A stretch of DNA of 64,000 bases from a virus, in the IMG/VR virus record IMGVR_UViG_3300037230_000036, positions 27,269-91,268 of that record, one strand, 5' to 3'. A program made the translations under genes and the position numbers. Of this stretch, positions 10,464 to 53,081 are shown piece after piece. The notes beneath the pieces are model-generated. The model was not told where the DNA came from and searched no databases. It worked only from the letters and a program-made list of their open reading frames with translations. Each line of letters opens with the position of its first letter. Within the stretch, counting starts at the first letter, position 1.

Positions 10464-12065
10464 CTATTCCGCCGCCTCCCACGCCGCGACGTGCTGCCAC
10501 TGTCGCTCGATCGCCGTATTGGCCAGCACTCCCTCGTTCGCTCCGGCTTCTCGCTGGTACTGCTGGATCAGATCCGCGTTACGCCCGAGCAGGCGCGCGA
10601 GGTCGGCGGTGTTTTGCGCGGTCTTGAGCCGAGGCAGAAACTGCGCCGCGTACCAGGCGGACCAGTTCGCGCGGCCGGCGTGGCGGGTGGGCTCCAGGCG
10701 CAGGCTCTCCCGGTCGTACCAGTCGCTGCGGTGGGGACGCTGCGGGGGCGCCACAGCGCGGGGAGCCGAGGCGGGCGTTGGAGCAAGCGGCAACTCGGCT
10801 TCGCGGGCTGGTGCGGCTGGCGCCGGGCTTCCACCGGCCTCCCCGTGCGATACCGGGTTCGTCAGCAAGTCTGGTGCTGTGCGTGGCCGCTCGTCCTCCG
10901 CAGGGACGTACTGCCGGGCATTGGTCTCACTAAAGGTTCCAGGCGGATCATCGACGGGTTCGCCATCGGCTGTCTCCCCGCGTTTTCCCTTCGGTTCATC
11001 GGCCTCTGCCCGCTCTGGGATGGGGTCGGCCGGGGGCGGAGGGGAGCCCGCTGATCCCGGCCGCTGCACCGGGTCGCCCGGCGGCAGCTTGTGCGCGAAG
11101 GCTTCCTCGACCGCGCGGACGTGATCGGGGAACTCGCCGCGATATTGTGACAGGAGGTCGGCGCTGGCGTCGCGCATCCGCGCCACGGACTCCGGTCGAC
11201 CATCCTCGATGTTGTGCATCATCCGGCCGCGCCATTCCTCGATCGTGCCGAGCTCGATCTGCTTGGTGCCGGTGTCGATCACAAATTTGCGATGGTCGAG
11301 ATCGGTGGCAGTCGGGGCGCCGGCGCGTTCGTCCGGGGCTGGGGACGCCATGCCCTCAATCACCACGCCGCGCATCGGATCGATGTAGCTGTGTTTGCCG
11401 CGCTCCTCGTGGGCCTCTTCCATGACGGCGGCGTTGACCATCAGGTTAACCGGCATGTCGCGGGCGAGGCGACGGCGCGGCGTCTTCTCGCACATTGCCG
11501 GGAAACCAATCTCCGCGTCGTTCCACGGCGAATCGGATTTCTTCGCGCCAGGGCTGCGGCCTTTGACGAACATCAGCTCGTCGATGTCCATGACGCGGAC
11601 AATGCTGCTGTGGCCGGGCCGGCTCGCGGTGGCCCACGCGCCGAGGATGCGCCGGCCGCGACCTGCGCCGAGTTCCGGCTTGTGGTGCACGTAGGCAGTG
11701 CTGCCGAGCTCGAAATCGAATTGATCGCCTTCCCGCACGACGGCGCCATTGATCGTGAAGCCGGATCGGCCCGCGAGGGTCGCGTAGCCGCGGTAGCCGA
11801 TTACAGGCTGAGCCTTCCCGGCGAAGGGGATCATGTAGAACTGGCCGAGCGCCCCATCGGCCTCGAGCCCGAGGACGGCCGCCGTCATCGCCGCCTGGAT
11901 GATCGATGGCACCGAGCAGTTCTGCAGGCTCGGCGTCTTCTCCAGCGAGACGAGGATCGTGCGTAGCAGCTTTTCGGGGGCGAGCCCGCTACCCCTCAGA
12001 GCCTCGGCAAAATGGGGCATCAGCGGGGTAAGCTGCCGTTCGATGACGGCGAGTTCCTGGGGCAT
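10464..12065 (-). CDS. recT: RecT-family single-strand annealing protein with long C-terminal extension
   Basis: LGLEADGALGQFYMIPF, IGYRGY, VREGDQF and SPWND..MCEKT motifs; GGAG RBS upstream of ATG 12065. Confidence 0.85.
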   Translation of the reverse strand: MPQELAVIERQLTPLMPHFAEALRGSGLAPEKLLRTILVSLEKTPSLQNCSVPSIIQAAMTAAVLGLEADGALGQFYMIPFAGKAQPVIGYRGYATLAGRSGFTINGAVVREGDQFDFELGSTAYVHHKPELGAGRGRRILGAWATASRPGHSSIVRVMDIDELMFVKGRSPGAKKSDSPWNDAEIGFPAMCEKTPRRRLARDMPVNLMVNAAVMEEAHEERGKHSYIDPMRGVVIEGMASPAPDERAGAPTATDLDHRKFVIDTGTKQIELGTIEEWRGRMMHNIEDGRPESVARMRDASADLLSQYRGEFPDHVRAVEEAFAHKLPPGDPVQRPGSAGSPPPPADPIPERAEADEPKGKRGETADGEPVDDPPGTFSETNARQYVPAEDERPRTAPDLLTNPVSHGEAGGSPAPAAPAREAELPLAPTPASAPRAVAPPQRPHRSDWYDRESLRLEPTRHAGRANWSAWYAAQFLPRLKTAQNTADLARLLGRNADLIQQYQREAGANEGVLANTAIERQWQHVAAWEAAE

Positions 12066-12280
12066 CAGTCGGATTCTCCCGCGCGGACGATTTTTGAAAA
12101 TGACGCAAACTCTCCCCGCTTTTCCATGAGTTTCATTCCATGAGGAAAGTTGAAATTGCAGCAGATTGCGCCACCGTGAACCGTATACGACCTGCGCCAT
12201 GTCCAGCACGCCGTTATCTGCCATAGTCGCGCTACAAGCCGGTCACCTTCGCATAGGTCGCTGTCGTGGATTTCGGCCAT
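12065..12280 (-). CDS. Hypothetical protein
   Basis: TGATG coupled to recT. Confidence 0.4.
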   Translation of the reverse strand: MAEIHDSDLCEGDRLVARLWQITACWTWRRSYTVHGGAICCNFNFPHGMKLMEKRGEFASFSKIVRAGESD

Positions 12281-13798: not shown

Positions 13799-14758
13799 CT
13801 ACGCCCCCAGGTAGTCGGCAGGATCGCGTGTCGCCTTGGCGGTATCCGCCACGGGCGCGCTGTTCTCCTCGACGATCTCGATGTTGATCCGGGTCGACGC
13901 CTTCCGCGTGACCTTCGGTTCGAGGTGCGGTTCGCACATCCCGGCGGCGACCTCGGTCCGCTTGATGAACGCGGTGAAGCCATCGGTCTTGAGGATGCCC
14001 GCCGGCCCGGCGCGACCCAGCAGTTTCGCCTTCATCTGCTCCGCCAGTTTCTTCGCGAAGGACTCATCGCTCTTGGCTCTGGCGTACTGCCGCAGCACCA
14101 GCGACATTTCCTCGTCGCCGAACGCCTCGACGATCGACGCCTTCTCGCTGAGCGGGTAGAGCGCGGCGAGCATCGGCAGCTCGAGCGGCGACCCCAGCGG
14201 GTCCGGCTCCTTCCCGGTCTTCAGGCTGTCGAAGAACGATGCCGCCTCGTCGCGCAGCCGCTCCTGCATCTCGCGGTTAGGCTCCCGCTCCAGGACGCGG
14301 AGGTCGTTGCCGCCGATCAGCACCGCGATCATCCCGAGCTCGGCCTTGTCGACCATGACTTGCGTCTGCACCTGGATCTCGACGTGCATCGCGGCGGCGG
14401 TTTCGGTCCAGGTCTGTTTCCAGCGCAACCAATCGACGCACTTCGCCTCGACAATGACCTTTCCTCTGTCCGGCATCACCATCCGGCCGTCGACCGTCGC
14501 GCCGAGGAGCCCGTCGCGGACATACTCGTCGGCGTCGTTGTGCTGCATCTCCAGCCGGTACTGCTTGGCGACGGCTTCGAGGATCGGGTGCTGTAGGGCC
14601 GTGCCCCAGTCGATCCGGTCGTCGGCGTCTGGCTCGATCATGGAGAGGTCGCGCTTGCGGAAGCAGTGGAACAGCATCCACCTGGTGCAATATGGACTCC
14701 GGTCGAAGAGGGCCGGCGCTTGACTGGCGCTGACGGTCTCAAAGCTCTTATCGGGCAT
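13799..14758 (-). CDS. YqaJ-like viral recombinase exonuclease
   Basis: SAS, WGTALQ, GATVDG, VEAKC and QVQTQ motifs; upstream of recT. Confidence 0.85.
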   Translation of the reverse strand: MPDKSFETVSASQAPALFDRSPYCTRWMLFHCFRKRDLSMIEPDADDRIDWGTALQHPILEAVAKQYRLEMQHNDADEYVRDGLLGATVDGRMVMPDRGKVIVEAKCVDWLRWKQTWTETAAAMHVEIQVQTQVMVDKAELGMIAVLIGGNDLRVLEREPNREMQERLRDEAASFFDSLKTGKEPDPLGSPLELPMLAALYPLSEKASIVEAFGDEEMSLVLRQYARAKSDESFAKKLAEQMKAKLLGRAGPAGILKTDGFTAFIKRTEVAAGMCEPHLEPKVTRKASTRINIEIVEENSAPVADTAKATRDPADYLGA

Positions 14759-15207
14759 CGCCTCGTTCTCCCATAGCTCGGCCCTTTTCCGCCTCCCGAT
14801 CTGGCACTTGGCCTCGGAAGAGAGCCTTGTCCTTTGGCTCTAGGGCAGGATGCCCCGCGTACTCAGGTCCCTCCGGCTCTCGCCGCTCTGCCATAGCAGG
14901 TCCGCTGGGTGCTTTTTTCGGCGCACCCCGGCTTGGGTTCGGACTATCCCCTTGCCGTCCGTCACCGCCCTCTGGGAGGCCGCCGGTTGGAATGGGCTCA
15001 CCAGAGCCGGCGATTTTTACAGGGACGCTTTTGCTCCACCGGCTTTTTGGGAGACGGAAGCCGGGCAACGCTGGGTGGCGATCGGGCATCCGGGGATTGT
15101 GGATTGCGCTGGGCTGCGCTATATCCCCGGCAGGAATGCAGGTCGCTACCACGACTGCGATCCAGAAGGCCGGTAGACGGTTGGTGCCGTCCCGGCCTTC
15201 GCTCATT

Positions 15208-15519
15208 TCAGGATGCCGCATCGACTTCCTCGGCGCAAGGGGTTTTGTCAGCATCGTAAACCCCGCGCAGAACGATCCAATCGCGAGGAATGCGGCTCGG
15301 CGCTGGTGCCAGAGCGGCGGGAGATGTCAGCAGGGCGCCGGCGATATCGTAGAGATGATGCACGAGCATGCTTTGCCGCCCTTGCTCGATATTCACGATC
15401 GAAGGCCGACTCACCCCGACGCGCGAAGCCAACTGGCTCTGTGTGAGTGCCATGAATTTCCGACGCTCGCGAACAAGGCGGCCGATCTCGCGATAAAGCG
15501 CGACGTGCTGCTCATTCAT
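15208..15519 (-). CDS. XRE-family HTH regulator
   Basis: LTQSQLASRVGVSRPSIVNIEQGRQ. Confidence 0.8.
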   Translation of the reverse strand: MNEQHVALYREIGRLVRERRKFMALTQSQLASRVGVSRPSIVNIEQGRQSMLVHHLYDIAGALLTSPAALAPAPSRIPRDWIVLRGVYDADKTPCAEEVDAAS

Positions 15520-15580
15520 TCCGGTGTTCCGTTCCTGCGACGGCACACCTCGATCACACCTTCGAGTTCGTCGTCAGCCA

Positions 15581-16472
15581 TCACGCCACCGCCGGCAACG
15601 CAAGCCCGCAGAACCCGCTGTCCCTGGTCCCCATGATCCAGCGCCACGCCATGCAATCGGAGGCGAGACAGCGACATGATGCGAGCGCTTTTGGGCCAGC
15701 AGTTTCAGGGTCAAAGCGATTGGCCGCGCCCGAAGCGGTTTTCCATTGAACCGCATCGCCCCGAATTTCCGGATGGTAGCGTGCGAAAGGACACCACTTC
15801 TGCCGCGCTTGATCCTCGGTCATCAGTCTCGCTCCCATTCCTTCGCGTTGGCGCACTCGGCTAGAAACTCCGCATCATCCCGCCGCATCCCGTAGCCCTC
15901 GTGACCGCAATCCGTGTTCCAGCCGGGCTGATCGGGCTCTTGCGACAGCGTCCAGATGCGGGCGTGGGGATCAGCTTTTGCCTCTACATCAGCGTCGGGA
16001 TCAGCGACCACGAACCACGCCATCGAAGCCCCCCCCTATCGTCGTCCTGGCTTCATTCCGGCGCACTCTCCACGCGCACGTAGCCGCCGATGAGCCCGGC
16101 CCCGGCCAGATGCGGCGCGGCCTTCCCGGCTTCGACGAGCCGCTTCAGCGCGGCCTCGATCTGCCCCGGCTTGACGTTGCCGATCTTCTCGACCAGCGCA
16201 TCCAGCGACTGCGGCTCGGTGGTCAGGCGGTCCAGCGTCGCGGCTTCGAGGTTCCGGCGCTGGCGACTCGGCGCGTCGTGGCCGTTGGGCGCGGGCGAGC
16301 CGGCGTCCTCGCGCATGGCCTCGACGGCGCGATCGTGCGCAGCAATCGCGGTTCGCGCGACGTCAATGCTGGACTCGGCATCGGCCAAAATCAGCTTTGC
16401 CCGCTGGTAAGCCTCTACCGCGTGCTGTTGCCTGCCCAGCAGTTCGGCGCGGATATCGTCGATCTTGCTCAT
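15581..16472 (-). CDS. Three small coupled hypothetical genes (15581-15823, 15823-16023, 16053-16472)
   Basis: Same-strand ORFs. The first has KWCPFAR..CLASDCMAWRW; the last has a wHTH-like C-terminus. Confidence 0.5.
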
Positions 16473-17728
16473 GCTGTTTCTCTCTCCGGTATAAGTGCGA
16501 AAAATCTGCGGAGGCGCGGAGCCTGGCGACGCCACACCATGTCTTCGATCTCTCGGCCGTAGTGGTTGCCATAGGCGCGCTCATAGGCCTTTCGCATCTG
16601 ATCTTGGCGCGTCATGTCGTACCCAGGCTGGCGTCGCGCGAAGAAAGGACGCCCTGCGGCGACCGTCGCCGGTGCCCTTCCGGTTAGCGCCGGATGCGCC
16701 GTTCCAGCGGTGGTCATGTTGAATAGGTTTCCCGTGTTGAGAAGTTCGCCAGCATTCCCCGCCTCGACGTGGAGCGCGATGGCGACCAACTGGTCGAGCG
16801 GCGGCGTCTCGTCAAAATAGAGGCAGAGATCGGCGAGCTTCTCGCCGCGGATCGCGGTCAGCCCGACGCGGATCCCACTATGCCCCAGCGCCGTCACGTT
16901 TTCCGACCGCACCTGGAAAATAAGATCGTTCGTCGTCGGGATCGCGACAGTCTCGCCGCGAACAAATGCCTGCACCGGCGCGGGACCGAGGATCTGCGCC
17001 GCCGTTGTCGCCGATCGCGCAAGGCGCTTCCGGTTGTCGCGGATCATGCGGCGCAGCGGCTGCCCGATTCGTTTCGCTTCCTGCTCGATGAGGAATTGGT
17101 TCAGCGCCTCCGTGCGGCGCCGGCCGCGCTCTTCATCCGCAGAGGTGAAGAGCGCGTCGAGCAGTTTCACTTCGTCCGGGTGCGCCGGCCACGGCAGCGA
17201 GCAGATACCCTTCGCGAGGCGCGCATGGTGGCCAACCGCGCGGCCGGGATCGGTGCGGACGTAGCGGCGGATTGCGGCTGGCGACCGGAGCCGACGCAGC
17301 ACGCGGGGCCTCGGGCTGCCATCGGCGCGGAGGCGGATGTCGCTGCCACGGCGCCAGTGTTCCAGCGCCCCGCCGATCGTCGAATCGTCGTAGTTCCAGG
17401 CGGCCAGGACCTCGGCGAGTTCGTGGATACGATAGCGTTCGCGGATAAGGGCTGCCGCCACAAAGGCACGCTGATGAGGCGCATCGAGTTCCGTAACGAT
17501 CGCCCGGGCATAGTCGCAGAGGCCGAAACACATTGCTTGGCGTCTACCGAGGTGCGTGTCGCTGTAGTCGCCATTGCGTTTAGGGCGCTCGACCAGATTG
17601 TCGATGACCCCTCGGTCGCCCAGCAGGTTGAGTGCGGCGTGGGACAGGCCGTCGAGCTCGCCGTACTCCACCGCCCCATCAAGGACGTATTGGATGTCGG
17701 GGGGAAGCGGCGACGGCCTGATCTGCAT
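16469..17728 (-). CDS. Cys-motif partner of diGly protein (module 1)
   Basis: C-terminal LCLYFDETPPLDQLVAIALH...GN aligns with 47640-48560; TGATG-coupled to 17728-18114. Confidence 0.65.
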   Translation of the reverse strand: MQIRPSPLPPDIQYVLDGAVEYGELDGLSHAALNLLGDRGVIDNLVERPKRNGDYSDTHLGRRQAMCFGLCDYARAIVTELDAPHQRAFVAAALIRERYRIHELAEVLAAWNYDDSTIGGALEHWRRGSDIRLRADGSPRPRVLRRLRSPAAIRRYVRTDPGRAVGHHARLAKGICSLPWPAHPDEVKLLDALFTSADEERGRRRTEALNQFLIEQEAKRIGQPLRRMIRDNRKRLARSATTAAQILGPAPVQAFVRGETVAIPTTNDLIFQVRSENVTALGHSGIRVGLTAIRGEKLADLCLYFDETPPLDQLVAIALHVEAGNAGELLNTGNLFNMTTAGTAHPALTGRAPATVAAGRPFFARRQPGYDMTRQDQMRKAYERAYGNHYGREIEDMVWRRQAPRLRRFFALIPERETA

Positions 17729-18114
17729 CAGCCGCCCCTGGCAGGACGTACCGCGACGGTTGCGGGCGATGCGACGATCTCTTGGGCATTGTGCGCGATG
17801 CGGCCTTGGCGCTTGCGTGGCGCCTCCGCAGTCTCGTTGTCGGTCTTGACGACTGTCACGTCGCCAATCCCGACAAGTGCGGCGAAATCTTTATCCGCCA
17901 TCGCGAGGGCCCGCCGCTCGCGCACTTCAGCAACGTCCTGCAGCGGCACGCGCCGCGGCGGGGCAAGACCGCCCGCGACCGGTTCGAGGAGGAAGAAGAC
18001 GACGCCCTCGGCCAGCTTCTTTTCGATCACCGGCAAAACCGCAGCATCGCTCGACTCGTCCCAGATCAGAGTGGTATCGCCGGTGCGGTCAAGCATCGTG
18101 AGTGAGCGTTGCAT
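17728..18114 (-). CDS. Putative ubiquitin-like protein ending in Gly-Gly (module 1)
   Basis: N-terminal LDRTGDTTLIW, C-terminal VAVRPARGG*; similar to 47412-47636. Confidence 0.65.
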   Translation of the reverse strand: MQRSLTMLDRTGDTTLIWDESSDAAVLPVIEKKLAEGVVFFLLEPVAGGLAPPRRVPLQDVAEVRERRALAMADKDFAALVGIGDVTVVKTDNETAEAPRKRQGRIAHNAQEIVASPATVAVRPARGG

Positions 18115-18115
18115 C

Positions 18116-18280
18116 TTATCTTGCCCCTTTGCGGTCGAGTTCGTCTTCCAGCCGGACGATCTGCTGCGTGATCGGGCCGCGCCGCTTGTCGTTCATCGGC
18201 AGAGATTTCAGCTTCGCACGGAGGTCCGCCAGCGCTTCGGAAAGGCTGCGGGGTTCGTGCCGGACAAGCGGGCTTAGCAT
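18116..18280 (-). CDS. Small helical protein (54 aa, not in ORF track)
   Basis: AGGAGA RBS; first gene of the leftward operon. Confidence 0.55.
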   Translation of the reverse strand: MLSPLVRHEPRSLSEALADLRAKLKSLPMNDKRRGPITQQIVRLEDELDRKGAR

Positions 18281-18395
18281 CGTGGTTCTCCTAAATTCTC
18301 ACTTCATAGTGGGTATTCTCGGATGGGAAGGCAAGAAATAAATTATCACCACCAGGCTTGAGTTTTTCTGAAAGCGCGCCCATCGTTATGAAACT
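18281..18395. promoter_or_regulatory. AT-rich divergent control region
   Basis: Strand switch and AT-rich gap between the leftward operon and the Cro-like gene. Confidence 0.55.
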
Positions 18396-18650
18396 ATGAA
18401 CCTGGAACAACGAGCCTCCCAGATCGTCGATGCCGTCCGCCTGTGGATGGACGAGCATCGCGTCACGCCGTATCGCCTGGCGAAAATGGCCGGCATAGCT
18501 GAGTGGCAGGTGCGCTGGATCCGACGGGACGATTTCACCGCGTCAGTCGAAGTGCTCGACAGGATCGACGAGGCGCGGCGGCGAAATCCTGCGCCGACGA
18601 TTCCAAGGCCCGGCCGACCGCGCATTGCCGATAAAGCCACAGCCCAATAG
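18396..18650 (+). CDS. Cro-like HTH protein
   Basis: VTPYRLAKMAGIAEWQVRWI; first rightward gene. Confidence 0.6.
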   Translation: MNLEQRASQIVDAVRLWMDEHRVTPYRLAKMAGIAEWQVRWIRRDDFTASVEVLDRIDEARRRNPAPTIPRPGRPRIADKATAQ

Positions 18651-18658
18651 GAGAAGGC

Positions 18659-19234
18659 ATGGACACCATCGCCACCGACCAGAACCCAGGCGAAGCCGAG
18701 CCCACACCGGCACCGGGATCCAACGTCACGTCCGAAACCGCGCTGCTCCTGCACTCAAGGATGACGGTGCTGGAGAGCGAGAAGGCCGAGGCGGCTGCGG
18801 GTGTCCGCGCCTGCAGCCGCGCGATCAAGACGCTGAAAGGCGAGGTCGAGGCCGCCGGGATCGACCTCAAGGGTTTCATGCGGGCGCGCGAGGATGCCGA
18901 ACTCGCCGGCTCCGAGCGGGAGCGCATGATCGCCGAGCACCAGCGGCAACTGGCCTGGTTGAAGAAACCGATCGGGTTCGAGCCGACGCTCACCCTGGCG
19001 GAGCCGATCACCTTCACACCGACCGAACTCGAATTGATCGGGCAGAAGGGGCACGGCGCCGGCAAGAGCAACCGGAACCGCGACGCCAACCCGGAGAATG
19101 TCGGCACCGAGGCCTACGTCGCCTGGGACAACGGTTGGATGAAGGCGCAGAAGGAGCTCGCCGCTGAGATGGGCGAGGCTCCGGCGTCGGAGAAGAAGCG
19201 GAGGCCGACAGTTGCCGGCAGCGGGCGCGCGTGA
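18659..19234 (+). CDS. GapR/DUF2312-like DNA-binding protein with Rmf-like C-terminal motif
   Basis: LESEKAE..IKTLKGEVEAAGIDLKGF; G..AG..NP..W..GW. AGGAG RBS. Confidence 0.5.
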   Translation: MDTIATDQNPGEAEPTPAPGSNVTSETALLLHSRMTVLESEKAEAAAGVRACSRAIKTLKGEVEAAGIDLKGFMRAREDAELAGSERERMIAEHQRQLAWLKKPIGFEPTLTLAEPITFTPTELELIGQKGHGAGKSNRNRDANPENVGTEAYVAWDNGWMKAQKELAAEMGEAPASEKKRRPTVAGSGRA

Positions 19235-25988: not shown

Positions 25989-28900
25989 GGGCCGGGATTG
26001 ACCGCGCCGCCGTCGTCTTCCCAGCGCGGCAGGTCGATGGTGGCGATTCAGAAGCTGATTTCCGCAACATGCGAGTTTACGTAAAGTGTAAAATCGTGTT
26101 GACGATTGAGGAGCACTTAGAACTGATCCGGCTGTCGCGCATAAGGGTTTGACCAGGAACCGGAACCACGTTCAAAGGCTCGCTCACCAGCGCGCTCCGC
26201 TTCCCAGCGGGTAGGGCAATCCCAACGATGACTCATGGCGATCTCAGTCCTTCGGGGTTGTTACAGGAAGGGCACTCGCGGAAATGTGGGTCGGCCACGC
26301 CGAGCGCGTAACATTCCCAGCCGCTCCCCTCACAGACGGGGCATGGATCGTCCTGGTAGCCGCCGCCCTCCGGCAGCAAACCTCCGCCGACGCCGCGACC
26401 GTCGCAGCAGGAGCAGAGGAAGCGCTTGCACACACCGCAGCATGCAATCTGGTCAGCCAGCGCATCGGCCATCGGCGCCCTCGTTGATGAGCCGGTCGAG
26501 CTCGCCGCAGAGCGCGCCCATCTCGCTCCACAGCCGCTCCCGGTCGTCTGGATCGCGCGCCGCGGAGATCCGACCCCCGACGTCGACGATGGCCTCCCGC
26601 ACGGCTGCGGCGCGGTCCTGTGGCGCCCGCGCGGGGAACGGGATCACGGTCATTCGTCAGCCTCTTCGAGTTCGAGCAGGTCGGCTACCGCCTCTGCCTC
26701 GGTCGAGCCCCATCCGACCTTGGCGCCGAGATCGTAGTCGCCGCGCGTGGCAGACCAGTCGGCGCTGCGGTACGGGATCGGCGGGTAGACGTGTTCGGTA
26801 ACGATCTTTTCGGCCTCGATCTCGGTCATTCTATCACCGAGAAATCGACGCCGAGGGCAACGAGTTCCTCCCGCAGCCGCGCCGCGTAGCGCTCGGCGAT
26901 CTCGCGAGCCTCGATCGTAGTGATGCGCAGCGTGAGGTGGGGGCCGGCCGGCATGTCAAGATCGATCGCCGCTGAATTACCCCTCCTCGAGGCGCGCACG
27001 AACGTCTCGACCGCCTTCAACTCGTCATCCAGTTTCATTGCGGCAGTAAGGTTGTAGCGCTTCATCGGGATTCTCCCCTCTCCGCGAGTTTCCTGCACCG
27101 ATCCCGCCACTGGAACAGAGCGTCCAAGATCGGGTCTGAGGCGCCGATGTCCTCGCGCTTTATCCGCCGCATGAACGCGAGGATCAGGTCGTTGGCGATC
27201 ACGCTCGTCTGCTGAGCGTGGCGGCGGAGGTCAGAGGGCTTCATGGCTTGTCTCCGGGCGAGGGCGAGCGAACCACAATCGTCTCGACGTGGTCGGGAAC
27301 GCCGTCAGTCGGCAGCATCGCCGTCAGCCCTGACCCTTTGCGGATCGTCTGGGTCGGGCCGAACTCCGCAAGCATCTCGACGAGTTTTTCGCGCCAGTTC
27401 TCGGAGGTGATCTGGTCCGCGCGCGCTAGCATACCGGGGGATTGTTGTTCCACCATCGCGCGCATATCTGCCATAAGCTGTTTATCGGCGAAATGATGCG
27501 TCCAGATTGGGTGTCCCATCAGGTATTCGGCCGCTTCATGGATTTCTGAAAAGCTTTTGCAGAGCATGACCCCACTCGCAATTGAAGCGATGACGCCAGT
27601 AGGAAATTCGCGAGCTTCGGGTTTCATCGGATCGCCACCAGAAAGAGGACGATCGCGCCGAACAGAAACGCCATCGCGATCCAACCGAGCAGCGAGACAG
27701 CCGCGCGCTCGCCCTGTGGCGCGATGCTGACCGGCCCACCGACAACCGCGATGTCGCTGATGTGCCGAGCCATCGCATCGCGCTGGAACTCGCCGTCGCG
27801 CGCATCCAGTTGCGCCGGCCATGGGCGCGTGATGCCTTTGTCCATTTCCAATTCCTCCGTCAAACATCATTTCGTCCCCAGCGCCCGGAGATGCTCCTGC
27901 GCGTCGGCCAGGAACAGCCTTGCATGGGCATAGTCGCCCGCTTCTGCCGCTGCATGTGCGGTCTTGAGCGCGGCGAGCATGGCGATCTTGCGAGCGGCCG
28001 GCAGCGGGGGCCGCAGCCCGAGCACGTCGACCAATTCCCGCAGCGGCTTATTCAGATAGTCCGATTGAGCGTCAACCATTGGTCATCTCCTTGGCGTTGA
28101 CGGCTTCGATCTCAGTGCGCCATTTCTCGATCAGGGCATGGATGGCGGCGATGGCGTCCTCCGCAGTGTAAAAGGCCCCATGCCGGCTCGTAACCTCTTC
28201 GCGACGGAACCGGCCGCCCGCGCTTTGATAGGCGATCCAGCCATCGGCGGTCGCGCAGACCTCGGCATCGAGGCGCCCCAGGAACGGCGCGGCGGCATAG
28301 ATCGCGTTCAGCTCATCGAGGGCCTTTGGGATCAGCGTCGAGTCCGCAAGCGCGGGGCCGGCATCTCGACAAAAGCAATGCAGGACACCGCCAGCGTGCG
28401 GACCAGGGCGAGGTTGGCCGCATCCTCGGCCAGGACGATGATTGCCCTCAAGGCGGCGTCCATCAGCGGGAGAGCCCGCATCGCCATCGCGATCTGCCCC
28501 TCGGTTTCGTCATCGATATCCCCACGCGGGTTGACCAGCGCGACCTCGCGACCGCCCCACACGATCGAGCGCGTAACGGTCCCCTCTTCTGCGGCACAGG
28601 TCCATTCGCCCCCAGGCGGGGTAGCGGCGTTGACGATCGCCTCGTCCTGGCTGTAGGGGCGCCGGGATTGGGCGGCGAAGAATGCCTGCCTGATAGCGTT
28701 CGCGTCGCTCATCGGATTCACTCCTTGTTACGGTGTCTCTGCGCGGCCTCGACGTCGCGCCAGTATTGGCCCCAATCCGCAACCACGTCGTCGAGGCGTA
28801 GGGTGCGATCGCCCCGCAGCCGGATGCCGATCGCGTTGAGGCGCTGCTCGGCCTCGCGCCACGGGGTTTCGTTGGTTCGCGCCTGTACGAAGCGGCGCTC

Positions 28901-44794: not shown

Positions 44795-45700
44795 ATGGCG
44801 TTCCAGCGCGAAAGTGAATCTCGCAAGCGGGCGCGGCGTGTTGTGGCTGCTACCGGACATCACCTCGGCAAGCTAGGCGGCCACATGCGCAGCCACCCGG
44901 ACGCTGCCGAAGACAAGGAACTCATCGATCACGAGCTGCGCGAAGCTTTCAAAGAACATGACGATCAGTTGCATTCCGGGAAAAAGACCAGACTCCGCCT
45001 CGCTGCGGGCGGTTCCGCAGAAGGGGACCCATCGAAACGCCGAGGGGACCGTAGTGCGCGTGGCAAGGAGCACGGCAGAACCAATGTGAATGTCATCGTT
45101 GCCCCGCGACCCGAAGGTGGTGGCGGGATGCCGATGCCGATGGGAGGCGGTGCGCCGCCCCCGATGCCGCCGCATCCGATGCCGGCCGGGCCTCCGCCGA
45201 TGCCGCCGGGTGGTGGCGGGATGCCGCCGGGGATGCCGGTTGGCGCCGGCCCGATGCCGCCGCGACCGCCGATGGGGATGCCGCCTGGAGCGCCTCCGGG
45301 CGGGATGCCGATGCGAAAAGCCGGTGGCCGCACCAGCCACAAGCACAAGGACATCGGGGGGCCGACAACGGGGCAACCGATGACGCCGCCGCAAGGGGGC
45401 CAGCAGCTGACTCCGCAGCAGATTCAGCAGATGCAGGCGCGCCGCGCGCAGATGCAGGGTGCCGGCGGCGGCGGAATGCAGCCCGGCATGGGGATGCCAG
45501 GAGGCGGGATGCCCGGCGGAAATCCGCCGACCGGGGGAACCGCTGGACCGATGGCGAAGAAAGGTGGCCGCGCCCGTCATGCGGAGGGCGGTCGCGCCGG
45601 TCGCCCGCACATGGAAGCGGGGGAAGGTTCCGGGGAAGGCCGCGCCGAGCAGTCGCGGCAGGTCCACTACGGTGAACGCGGCGGCCGCGGGAGGGCATGA
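44795..45700 (+). CDS. Pro/Gly/Met-rich low-complexity protein with xxGG motifs
   Basis: GAGGAGG RBS; poly-PPGM tracts. Confidence 0.65.
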   Translation: MAFQRESESRKRARRVVAATGHHLGKLGGHMRSHPDAAEDKELIDHELREAFKEHDDQLHSGKKTRLRLAAGGSAEGDPSKRRGDRSARGKEHGRTNVNVIVAPRPEGGGGMPMPMGGGAPPPMPPHPMPAGPPPMPPGGGGMPPGMPVGAGPMPPRPPMGMPPGAPPGGMPMRKAGGRTSHKHKDIGGPTTGQPMTPPQGGQQLTPQQIQQMQARRAQMQGAGGGGMQPGMGMPGGGMPGGNPPTGGTAGPMAKKGGRARHAEGGRAGRPHMEAGEGSGEGRAEQSRQVHYGERGGRGRA

Positions 45701-47411: not shown

Positions 47412-47636
47412 ATGGCAGGCAAAATCTACAAACTCGACCACACCGGCCACGGCGTTTTGACCGAGTGGAAGGACAAGCCGAAGGAGATCGCTGCGGCGGC
47501 TCAGATTTTCGGCGAGTTGCAGAAGGCCGGCAACCTGCTGGTCACGATCCCCGACGATGGCAGCGACGGCGAGGTCGTCGAGACCTTTCGGCCCGATGCC
47601 GAGATGCTGATGGTGCCCGCGCTGCAAGGGGGCTGA
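47412..47636 (+). CDS. Putative ubiquitin-like (beta-grasp) protein ending in Gly-Gly (module 2)
   Basis: 74 aa; LDHTG; beta-beta-alpha-beta-beta-beta pattern; C-terminus MLMVPALQGG* resembles MoaD/ThiS/SAMP tails. Confidence 0.7.
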   Translation: MAGKIYKLDHTGHGVLTEWKDKPKEIAAAAQIFGELQKAGNLLVTIPDDGSDGEVVETFRPDAEMLMVPALQGG

Positions 47637-47639
47637 ACC

Positions 47640-48560
47640 GTGGCGCTCCCGAGAACGTGGGAAGGACTGGCGCGGTATCTGCGGGCACCGGATGTGCCGC
47701 CTGTTGTCGGTGTCCTACGCAATGAATCTGATCGTCCTCCAGCCGTTGACATGCGGGCGGCTGTGTACACCGAGCGCGATATCAGGCGGATGTATGAAGG
47801 CTTGCCCGAGGGTGCCGTCATTAACCGCTCGTGGACGACGGTGTACCGTCGCGATCCGGCGCAGCGTAGTACCGACGCTGAAGTGGGACGGATCGAGAGT
47901 GTCGACGAGACGCTCGCCATGCAGCAGACGACGCAAGCGCTCGAACGATGCAACCGGGCATTGATGCAGGCCAGCGCCATGCCCATCGAGTTGCTGTCAG
48001 GTATCCGGAACGGAGTCGGCATCGCTGAGGAGATCGTGCGCGAAGGCGCTCGCCGGCTTGAGATGATGGCAGCGCGGGCTACTATAGACGTCATTCTGGC
48101 CCCTACGAGCGCGGCATCCCGTGACCGCGCCCGGTCGCTCCTGCTCCGCTTTCTCAAGCCGGAGCAGCGCGAGCAGCACGGCAAGACCGGCGCGTTCGAT
48201 CATCTCGGAAAGTACGGCACCTACACGCTTCGGCTCGGTCGCAGCTACAATGTTCGGTTCGAGCCAAAGCCCGGCGCCGCGGCATCCGTGGAAGATGAGA
48301 AGTACCATTCCGCCGCTGTCCTCTGCGCGATCCCCGCTGGTGCTGGCGAGATGCCGGTCGAGGACATTCTGATCGCGCAGCTGCTGTGGCTGCGGCGCGA
48401 CGAGGATGACTTCTGGTGGCGGGCAAATAGGGGGCCCGGCGAGATGATTGAACTCGATGCGCCGGGACGCACGGCATGGCAATGGCGTGAGTGGTGTCGT
48501 GCGGCGCGCGAGCGGGGCGAGTTCTTCATCATCGATGATCCGCAGACGCCAACCGAATGA
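47640..48560 (+). CDS. Cys-motif partner of diGly protein (module 2)
   Basis: ARSLLLRFLKPEQ..LCAIP..MPVEDILIAQLLWL..DE..F...AN. Confidence 0.65.
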   Translation: MALPRTWEGLARYLRAPDVPPVVGVLRNESDRPPAVDMRAAVYTERDIRRMYEGLPEGAVINRSWTTVYRRDPAQRSTDAEVGRIESVDETLAMQQTTQALERCNRALMQASAMPIELLSGIRNGVGIAEEIVREGARRLEMMAARATIDVILAPTSAASRDRARSLLLRFLKPEQREQHGKTGAFDHLGKYGTYTLRLGRSYNVRFEPKPGAAASVEDEKYHSAAVLCAIPAGAGEMPVEDILIAQLLWLRRDEDDFWWRANRGPGEMIELDAPGRTAWQWREWCRAARERGEFFIIDDPQTPTE

Positions 48561-49285: not shown

Positions 49286-49702
49286 ATGGCCGAAATCGCC
49301 AGCCAAGCCCTCCAGCTAAACCTGGGGAACGATCCGGCCTCCGCCATTCGGCTGCAGGTCGCGAACTTCCTTGACGGCATCGAGATCGGCGGCGAAGACC
49401 TGCTGGTCGGCATCTTTATCCCGGATGCGAACGCCAAGACCGCCGGCAACATCATCCTGCCCGAGCAGTACCTCAAGGAATACCGCTGGCAGGGGACCGC
49501 CGGCCTCGTCTTGAAGATCGGGCCGCTCGCCTACAACACCGAGGAAACGAAGGACTGGTACGCCAAGGCACCCGCCGTTGGCGACTGGGTCATGTTCGAC
49601 GTGAAGACGGGGCACCAACTCCTCCTCGGTAAGCAGCCCTGTCGGCTGGTCCCGGCCCGCTACATCCTCGGCAAGCTCGCCAACCCAATGCTGGTGTTCT
49701 GA
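49286..49702 (+). CDS. GroES-like co-chaperonin
   Basis: KTAGNIILP, GLVLKIGPLAY and VGDWVMF motifs. Confidence 0.75.
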   Translation: MAEIASQALQLNLGNDPASAIRLQVANFLDGIEIGGEDLLVGIFIPDANAKTAGNIILPEQYLKEYRWQGTAGLVLKIGPLAYNTEETKDWYAKAPAVGDWVMFDVKTGHQLLLGKQPCRLVPARYILGKLANPMLVF

Positions 49703-52172: not shown

Positions 52173-53081
52173 TTGGCCATCACGAGAGGGTCAGAGCGCG
52201 ATTTGTTGTTACCAGGTCTAGCGGGGGTCGAGGGCAAGTATCCGCAGATTGTTCGCCAATGGCCAACGGTGTTCAACCGCGGCTTTTCGAAGATGGCCGC
52301 CGAGCGTATCGCCGAAATGCGGTACACCGGCCTCGCCGAGCTGAAGGCTGAAGGCGGCGCGACCACCTTCGACAACGCCCCCGGCGAGCGCTTTATCTGG
52401 AACATCGAGGCCAATGCCTACGGTCTCGGCACGGCGATCACCCGTGAGGCCTTGGACGACAACCTCTACAAGGACCATTTCGGTCCGATGTCGATCGGCC
52501 TCGCGGAATCCTTCGCGCAGACCGAAGAGATCGTCCACGCCAACATCTTGAACCAGTCGACGACGAACAACCCGACGATCATCGGCGACGGTCAGCCGTT
52601 GGCCTCGACCGCGCATCCGATCGACAACGGCACCTACGCGAACCGGCCGTCGCCCGACCTCGACCTCAACGAGGCCGCCGTCGAGTACATGACGCAGCTG
52701 ATCCGCGTCTTCCCCGACCAGGCCGGCAACCGCCTCTTGGCGCGCTCCCGGAAGCTCGGCGTCCCCATCGCGCTGCAGTACACCGCGGAGCGCCTCACCA
52801 AGGCCGAGCTCCGCCCCGGCACCAACACGAACGACATCACCGCGTTCCTCTCGGCGGGCGCCCTCCCCGAGGGCTACCAGGTCATGGACTACCTGACCTC
52901 GCCCTACCTCTGGTTCGTGCTGTCGACGATCAAGGGGCTGGTCAGCTACGAACGGGTGCCGTTCGAGCTCGATATGCAAGTCGATCCGATAACCGGAAAT
53001 CTTTTACTAGTAGGTTACCAGAGGTATGGAGTTGGGTGGAAGAACCCCCGCGGTATCGCCATTTCGGCTCCGACAGCCTAG
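52173..53081 (+). CDS. Major capsid protein (HK97 fold)
   Basis: AAGGAG RBS and TTG start; LLLPGL, KAEGG..FD, ITREALDDNLY, GDGQPL.STAHP and NPRGI motifs. Confidence 0.9.
   Translation: MAITRGSERDLLLPGLAGVEGKYPQIVRQWPTVFNRGFSKMAAERIAEMRYTGLAELKAEGGATTFDNAPGERFIWNIEANAYGLGTAITREALDDNLYKDHFGPMSIGLAESFAQTEEIVHANILNQSTTNNPTIIGDGQPLASTAHPIDNGTYANRPSPDLDLNEAAVEYMTQLIRVFPDQAGNRLLARSRKLGVPIALQYTAERLTKAELRPGTNTNDITAFLSAGALPEGYQVMDYLTSPYLWFVLSTIKGLVSYERVPFELDMQVDPITGNLLLVGYQRYGVGWKNPRGIAISAPTA

Follow-up and report, generated by a model that had tools for sequence, protein, structure and literature searches.

A widespread two-gene phage module that pairs a small Gly-Gly-ended, probably ubiquitin-like protein with a conserved cysteine-domain protein

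The 64,000-nucleotide stretch of viral DNA analyzed here (the window; positions 27,269 to 91,268 of IMG/VR record IMGVR_UViG_3300037230_000036, a complete virus genome of 91,268 bp with direct terminal repeats) carries on its minus strand two adjacent genes, for a small protein that ends in Gly-Gly and for a larger protein with a conserved cysteine. They are referred to below as the small protein and its partner and, together, as the early pair; a second, plus-strand pair of somewhat similar appearance (the late pair) serves as a comparison object. Both early open reading frames (ORFs) are present in the ORF list at the coordinates given in a first-pass annotation, which was also right about the Gly-Gly end and about the coupling of the two genes by a TGATG sequence. 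The early pair is laid out as follows.

17728-18114, minus strand: small protein gene (128 amino acids, aa), product predicted to be beta-grasp-like and ending in ...RPARGG; Gly-Gly codons at 17731-17736, stop codon at 17728-17730
17726-17730, minus strand: TGATG stop/start overlap, in which the TGA of the small gene shares one base with the ATG of the partner gene
16469-17728, minus strand: partner gene (419 aa), product with helices in its N-terminal region and a conserved alpha/beta domain at the C-terminus
16694-17056, minus strand: conserved core domain of the partner (residues 225-345), predicted to form two helices, four strands, then helices; Cys302 codon at 16823-16825

Sequence comparisons showed the early pair to be a real, widespread, undescribed and autonomous two-gene phage module. 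A search of 1.84 billion cluster representatives (50% identity) with a HMMER profile, or hidden Markov model (HMM), of nine small proteins yielded 442 relatives at E of 0.001 or better, 360 of them at E of 1e-10 or better. Among the best 150 of these 442 representatives the C-terminal end is GG in 137, AG in 7 and SG in 2, and two without any such end are an apparent frameshift fusion and a read-through. A 568-aa sequence (P0070) that might have been a natural fusion of the two proteins was discarded, its junction reading like a frameshifted stretch. No family in Pfam, PHROG, NCBIfam or PADLOC matches the early small protein or its partner; searches of Pfam and PHROGs with each member of the small-protein alignment A5 and the partner alignment A4 returned nothing, and sequence searches of the PDB with the family profiles and with the late small protein gave nothing at E of 0.1 or better.

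Word-based searches with the partner gave approximately 13 clusters, none of them named. In all of the seven viral and three metagenome loci recovered via the partner, the small gene adjoins, and its product ends in RGG, KGG, VGG or AGG (once in KSG). One metagenome contig (L009:17-1451, plus strand) has the reversed order: here the partner gene precedes that of the small GG protein, with an overlap of a few bases. Viral stretches were further sampled by a degenerate DNA pattern for G-D-x4-W...K-x3-G-x2-F-F, which recovered 48 stretches, 36 of them encoding a member of the small-protein family. The partner HMM matches a same-strand gene just downstream of the small gene in 32 of these 36 loci, mostly with an overlap or a spacing of a few bases and, in a few cases, with one or two small genes in between. 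Two of the four loci lacking a partner end before the downstream sequence, and the other two represent a single low-GC lineage (L029:1146-1532, minus strand; L057:7998-8390, plus strand) in which the homologue ends in ...KPIIRMKRYVSN, with no GG and no partner gene beside it. This family-wide conservation of the tail, together with the adjacency of the partner, bears out the proposal that the GG end of the early small protein is not a product of chance. The carriers span GC contents of 0.32-0.65 and include proviruses as well as contigs of 278-608 kb, many carriers being larger than 200 kb. No flanking gene is common to different loci, and the pair is thus a self-contained module. The window pair belongs to this family, its adjacent same-strand genes being matched by both HMMs (133 and 129 bits) and its small protein carrying an RGG tail.

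Two cultured jumbo phages, Agrobacterium phage Atu_ph07 and Sinorhizobium phage Phosso, carry the pair as AUZ95013.1 with AUZ95012.1 and as XYS97503.1 with XYS97502.1, respectively, all four annotated as hypothetical. Their small proteins are matched at E of 3e-37 and 4e-42 and their partners at 1e-25 and 6e-25. These are true family members with the same gene order as the window pair, in contexts that differ from that of the window (beside the genes for small terminase and capsid, or beside those for a methyltransferase and Thg1). A tblastn search of cultured phages with the early small protein led to Phosso and Atu_ph07; the same search with the early and late partners gave no match, and a scan of genome contigs for the early partner was equally negative.

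The near-invariant positions of the small protein (alignment A5) are G12, D13, W18, K33, G37, F40, D74 and the final G127 and G128. Its AlphaFold2 model (141 sequences; mean predicted local distance difference test score, pLDDT, of 64.8) has the order b-b-a-b-(insert)-a-b-b-a-b, where b is a strand and a is a helix, an order matching a beta-grasp that has an insertion behind its third strand. Local pLDDT is 76-85 in the N-terminal b-b-a-b unit and in the last strand and drops below 50 at residues 47-72 and 92-101. Structural matches of the model are weak, and nearly all of them are beta-grasp or ubiquitin-like (Ubl) chains, among them SUMO, MoaD, TtuB, ubiquitin, ISG15 and Mth1743. On the strength of this model, a ubiquitin-like fold of the small protein is probable, not proven.

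All invariant residues of the partner, as judged in alignments A3 and A4 and in approximately 40 well-aligned sequences, lie in the C-terminal domain: F255, G258, C302, P309, D312, Q313 (His in one sub-clade), G324 and N334. The partner model, a confident one (mean pLDDT 82.9), is helical up to residue 256, followed by strands at 260-264, 269-275, 286-292 and 297-302 and by helices at 310-322 and 326-332; Cys302 ends the fourth strand, a position reminiscent of the E2 cysteine. Searches with the whole partner model (Foldseek PDB, VIA) were dominated by matches to the long helix 181-223 and the N-terminal helices and yielded, for the C-terminal domain, neither an assignable fold nor a structural match to an E2. 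In BFVD the top structural match is the Atu_ph07 orthologue (E of 6.6e-10), the others being uncharacterized phage proteins, and the ESM Atlas neighbors of the partner domain are unnamed clusters of 140, 166 and 309 aa (TM scores 0.69-0.71), two of them viral and one from Chloroflexota. The suggestion that the N-termini of the partners are variable received partial support within the family: seven partners, which have short N-termini, share only the C-terminal domain, and most others also retain a D-[IV]-[QE]-Y-x-[LIF]-D-type motif near the N-terminus. His320 was considered as a catalytic mate of Cys302 and rejected, as many members have Met, Phe or Tyr at this position. A sub-clade of partners (L024, L025, L030, L032, L051, L053 and L056) has a second Cys three residues before the invariant one and His at both 313 and 320, a C-x2-C...H-x6-H arrangement that might form a metal site and is absent from most partners.

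The two strongest inferences from these data are that the Gly-Gly end is functional and that it works with the cysteine domain of the partner; binding between the two proteins, covalent chemistry, activator and targets are all inferred. The mechanism that we tentatively consider most likely is a ubiquitin-like carrier/transfer pair, in which the partner would accept, in an E2-like manner, a host-activated Gly-Gly tail. The small protein would have a ubiquitin-like beta-grasp fold, interrupted by an internal insertion, and would be synthesized with its C-terminal Gly-Gly already free; the partner would be its dedicated enzyme or receptor, a domain of approximately 120 aa presenting one invariant cysteine flanked by the invariant Asp, Gln/His and Asn. 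The tail would be the working end of the small protein, docking at the cysteine site, where the partner cysteine may, like that of an E2, receive the activated tail in thioester linkage and then hand it on. As the phage encodes no E1, activation would need an E1-like adenylating enzyme of the host, e.g., MoeB or ThiF.

Several lines of evidence point in this direction. The tail is conserved far beyond chance (nine representatives with AG or SG adding to the 137 with GG), 32 of the 36 viral loci encode both proteins on one strand, and the sole lineage in which the small protein has lost GG (L029/L057) is also without the partner. The lack of any conserved flanking gene makes the module self-contained, and the start/stop overlaps imply co-translation. 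All well-aligned partners have Cys302, Pro309, Asp312, Gly324 and Asn334, and Cys, Asn and Asp without a catalytic His constitute the active-site residue set of E2 enzymes. The order of elements in the C-terminal domain (helix, four strands, Cys, helices) and the almost exclusive matching of the small-protein model to beta-grasp/Ubl chains are consistent with the same mechanism. The partner domain thus recalls an E2 by element order, Cys position and the Cys/Asp/Asn set, which is a resemblance and not membership.

Other results weigh against an E2-like transfer. Unless it is activated, a free carboxylate does not give a thioester, and a ThiF-type E1 (PF00899) is absent both from the complete 91-kb phage and from five pair-carrying jumbo phages, the positive controls having been matched. 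The Prok-JAB family (PF14464) is likewise absent from this phage. No HPN motif occurs upstream of Cys302 in the partner alignment, Pfam Ubl/ThiS/E2 models (including UQ_con / Prok-E2) have no match in 19 partner sequences, and none of these Pfam families was matched at E of 0.01 or better among 141 small proteins.

The lack of an activating enzyme in any phage examined is what would be expected of a non-covalent complex, in which the Gly-Gly tail is a flexible plug in a pocket of the partner, as that of MoaD is in MoaE, the pair has a regulatory or adaptor role, and the cysteine is structural or a ligand. The tight coupling and co-occurrence of both genes, the joint loss of GG and partner in L029/L057 and the potentially metal-binding C-x2-C...H-x6-H arrangement of the sub-clade also agree with such a complex. 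A lone invariant Cys near an invariant Asp and Asn, however, suggests an active site over a structural core, and a conserved terminal Gly-Gly is typical of reactive tails, so that we regard this explanation as somewhat unlikely. A sulfur-carrier pair, with a Gly-Gly thiocarboxylate as in ThiS, MoaD or TtuB and a partner cysteine relaying persulfide for phage-directed thiolation, would account for the presence of MoaD, TtuB and the ThiS/MoaD-like Mth1743 among the structural matches, for a GG end that is free without a processing peptide and for the single invariant Cys. It appears very improbable, given that no adenylating enzyme, cysteine desulfurase, PP-loop ATPase or other sulfur-pathway gene accompanies the pair and that PF02597 is unmatched.

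The free movement of the module across unrelated phage contexts, which resembles that of anti-defense genes, and its location in an early-type cluster in this phage bring to mind a counter-defense pair. The small protein would then be a decoy Ubl for conjugation-based immunity of the host (Bil, or Cap2 of the type II cyclic oligonucleotide-based antiphage signaling system, CBASS), and the partner would be a cysteine hydrolase removing host tags from phage proteins or would trap the host enzyme. The cultured carriers infect Sinorhizobium and Agrobacterium, and a Type II Bil operon was characterized from Ensifer aridi (PMC10557695). Nevertheless, a papain-like hydrolase is unlikely, as no conserved His accompanies the partner Cys; neither PADLOC nor the peptidase families are matched, and the presence of Bil/CBASS systems in the hosts is without support. 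Overall, we consider a counter-defense role to be distinctly unlikely, and the E2-like carrier/transfer pair is retained as the leading, if tentative, mechanism.

Among known systems, the stand-alone carriers ThiS, MoaD, Urm1, SAMP and TtuB (PF02597 and relatives; PMC1779556) resemble the early small protein, a probable beta-grasp, in being small, in having a free Gly-Gly and in being encoded beside a protein that handles the tail, a role the early partner would play. The early small protein differs from them in having an internal insertion of approximately 40 residues and no PF02597 match in any of 141 members, and no E1-like adenylating enzyme is found in the neighborhood of the early pair or in its genome; its partner, unlike MoaE, ThiG or TtuA, is an undescribed Cys domain. 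In the BilABCD operon, four components come in the order Ubl-E2-DUB(JAB)-E1, DUB being a deubiquitinase (PMC10557695). This operon and classes 6a-6e of Iyer, Burroughs and Aravind (PMC1779556) resemble the early module in that a Ubl (a probable one in the early module) with a conserved terminal glycine is followed by a gene whose product has a conserved Cys after a four-stranded sheet (a predicted one in the early partner), and the prokaryotic E2-like proteins also lack the HPN histidine, as does the early partner. The early module differs in comprising two genes, without E1 and JAB peptidase and with neither a PADLOC nor an E2 structural match, and in being phage-borne rather than located in defense islands. 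The TAPI (Ubl) and TAPK (JAB plus NlpC/P60) proteins of phages lambda and T1 (PMC1779556) likewise combine a phage Ubl (probable in the early pair), which has a conserved C-terminal beta-grasp glycine, with an adjacent cysteine-containing enzyme (putative in the early pair). However, TAPI is encoded in the tail operon and has a further domain after the glycine, and TAPK has JAB and papain-like domains (PMC1779556), whereas the early pair has a free tail, a non-structural context and a match to neither peptidase family. The literature searched, which covers the host Bil/Bub systems and lambda TAPI/TAPK, contains nothing resembling the early pair.

With 442 clusters at 50% identity, the family is a large one, and none of Pfam, PHROGs, NCBIfam and PADLOC includes it. 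To our knowledge, ubiquitin-type tagging in bacteria has so far been known from host defense operons (Bil, Bub, CBASS Cap2), all of which have their own E1. A phage pair consisting of only a Gly-Gly protein and a Cys partner, if true, would represent a viral use of such tagging with borrowed host activation, a counter-measure to host tagging or a new Ubl-enzyme complex. The most far-reaching version would be a two-gene, E1-less tagging system of phages, in which a Ubl activated by the host (via MoeB/ThiF or the E1 of a defense system) is loaded on the Cys of a new E2-like family and attached to host or phage proteins, widespread in viruses from 60-kb temperate to 600-kb jumbo phages; in this full form it is speculative and, in our estimate, rather unlikely. 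As two of the carriers are cultured jumbo phages whose hosts (Agrobacterium tumefaciens C58 and Sinorhizobium meliloti) are tractable, the question lends itself to direct experiment.

The first-pass annotation had further proposed that the early pair is a diverged copy of a late pair, the same chemistry being used twice, at two times of infection. The late pair does exist where it was placed, within the head operon, and the features relevant to the comparison are as follows.

47412-47636, plus strand: late small protein gene (74 aa), product ending in ...VPALQGG
47640-48560, plus strand: late partner gene, 306 aa from GTG 47640 (the public gene call is 269 aa from ATG 47751)
52173-53081: major capsid gene, away from the late pair

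Where the late partner begins is ambiguous; its GTG 47640 follows a GGGGG run 3 nt past the stop of the late small gene. In both pairs, a small GG-ended protein with a similar tail pattern directly precedes a Cys-containing protein, and all motifs quoted in support of the kinship do occur in the early and late sequences. In both small proteins a hydrophobic strand precedes the terminal GG, and a gene with the pattern LC...P..D.L.A..L...N follows each of them. Among 128,000 six-frame residues of the window this pattern is found in the early and late partners only, which is no test, as these two proteins were the source of the pattern. All seven residues of the late tail VPALQGG recur as the tail of a true member of the early family (L056, 7537-7914, minus strand), the rest of the two proteins being unalignable; this match may reflect a general shape of Ubl tails. 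The argument that recurrence within one genome speaks against a chance GG end did not hold, since 5 of 760 six-frame ORFs end in GG (approximately 0.6-0.8 expected per phage genome), and a second such end in a genome of about 100 genes is therefore unremarkable.

Direct comparisons of the two pairs were uniformly negative. BLASTP gave no match between the early and late small proteins and, between the partners, an E of 4.9 or worse at best, while profile-profile comparison (hhalign) of the early family profiles with the late proteins reached probabilities of only 0.2-0.3%. Against the family HMMs, shuffled sequences matched or exceeded the real score in 343 of 2000 cases for the late small protein (17%) and in 180 of 2000 for the late partner (9%). 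When all 934 six-frame ORFs of the window were ranked by these HMMs, the early pair came first, the late small protein 131st and the late partner 236th-239th, and a six-frame HMM search of the entire genome (E of 1 or better) found the early pair alone. Thus, no significant similarity exists between the pairs at the level of sequence profiles, an outcome that the first-pass annotation itself had named as telling against kinship. The late small protein is 54 residues shorter than the early one, and in the late partner the Cys, Pro, Asp and Asn are kept, whereas Gln/His313 and Gly324 are missing and the Cys-Pro spacing is different. The nearest ESM Atlas structure clusters of the two partners differ, with no overlap between the neighbor lists, an indirect comparison of the structures. 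The late pair appears to be an orphan: Pfam, PHROGs, NCBIfam and PADLOC returned nothing usable for either protein, neither the late small protein nor the late partner has a homologue in any of the collections searched, and five viral records with the early pair contain neither of the two. As far as sequence comparison can tell, the early pair is independent of the late pair, with no detectable relationship, and a duplicated module with the same chemistry is, in our view, improbable. The negative result also means that short common motifs and a second GG end in one genome are no evidence of a duplicated system.

The immediate neighbors of the early pair are the following.

18116-18280, minus strand: 54-aa gene directly upstream of the pair, the first gene of a leftward cluster, with an AGGAG-type (strong) ribosome-binding site; not conserved with the pair
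16053-16472, minus strand: downstream gene, 139 aa if the start is ATG 16472, with an ATGA overlap with the partner stop; not conserved with the pair

The 54-aa gene with its strong ribosome-binding site makes the early pair the second and third genes of the leftward cluster and not its head, as had been proposed. The TGATG junction, or an ATGA overlap, is also found in L001-L005. The 139-aa gene is preceded by GGAGAGAG, and the C-terminal part of its product resembles a winged-helix protein. Farther downstream, on the same strand, lie genes for an XRE-type helix-turn-helix protein, a YqaJ exonuclease and a RecT protein. The YqaJ-type exonuclease gene (13799-14758, minus strand) and the RecT-family gene (10464-12224, minus strand) both belong to the leftward cluster of the early pair; the RecT-family protein is unusual in its length (586 aa), its RecT domain spanning residues 85-277. 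The leftward cluster fits an early or recombination type, the "early" timing being read from the neighbor genes alone, and a scan for sigma-70 promoters over 15000-19000 found no site.

A 502-aa ORF on the plus strand (16769-18277) runs antisense to the early pair, with a GC content at third codon positions (GC3) as high as that of the pair. Composition thus cannot pick the coding strand, and conservation does: the plus-strand ORF was rejected as a true gene, the minus-strand pair being kept in low-GC phages without the shadow frame. A simple GC3-based gene caller selects this shadow ORF over the true minus-strand pair. Elsewhere in the window, on the plus strand, the head operon encodes a 301-aa protein consisting mostly of Gly/Pro/Met repeats (44795-45700; PPMP and GGMP runs), for which PHROG has no match, and a gene inside the head-morphogenesis block (49286-49702) encodes a GroES-like co-chaperonin (phrog_3188, E of 7e-8).

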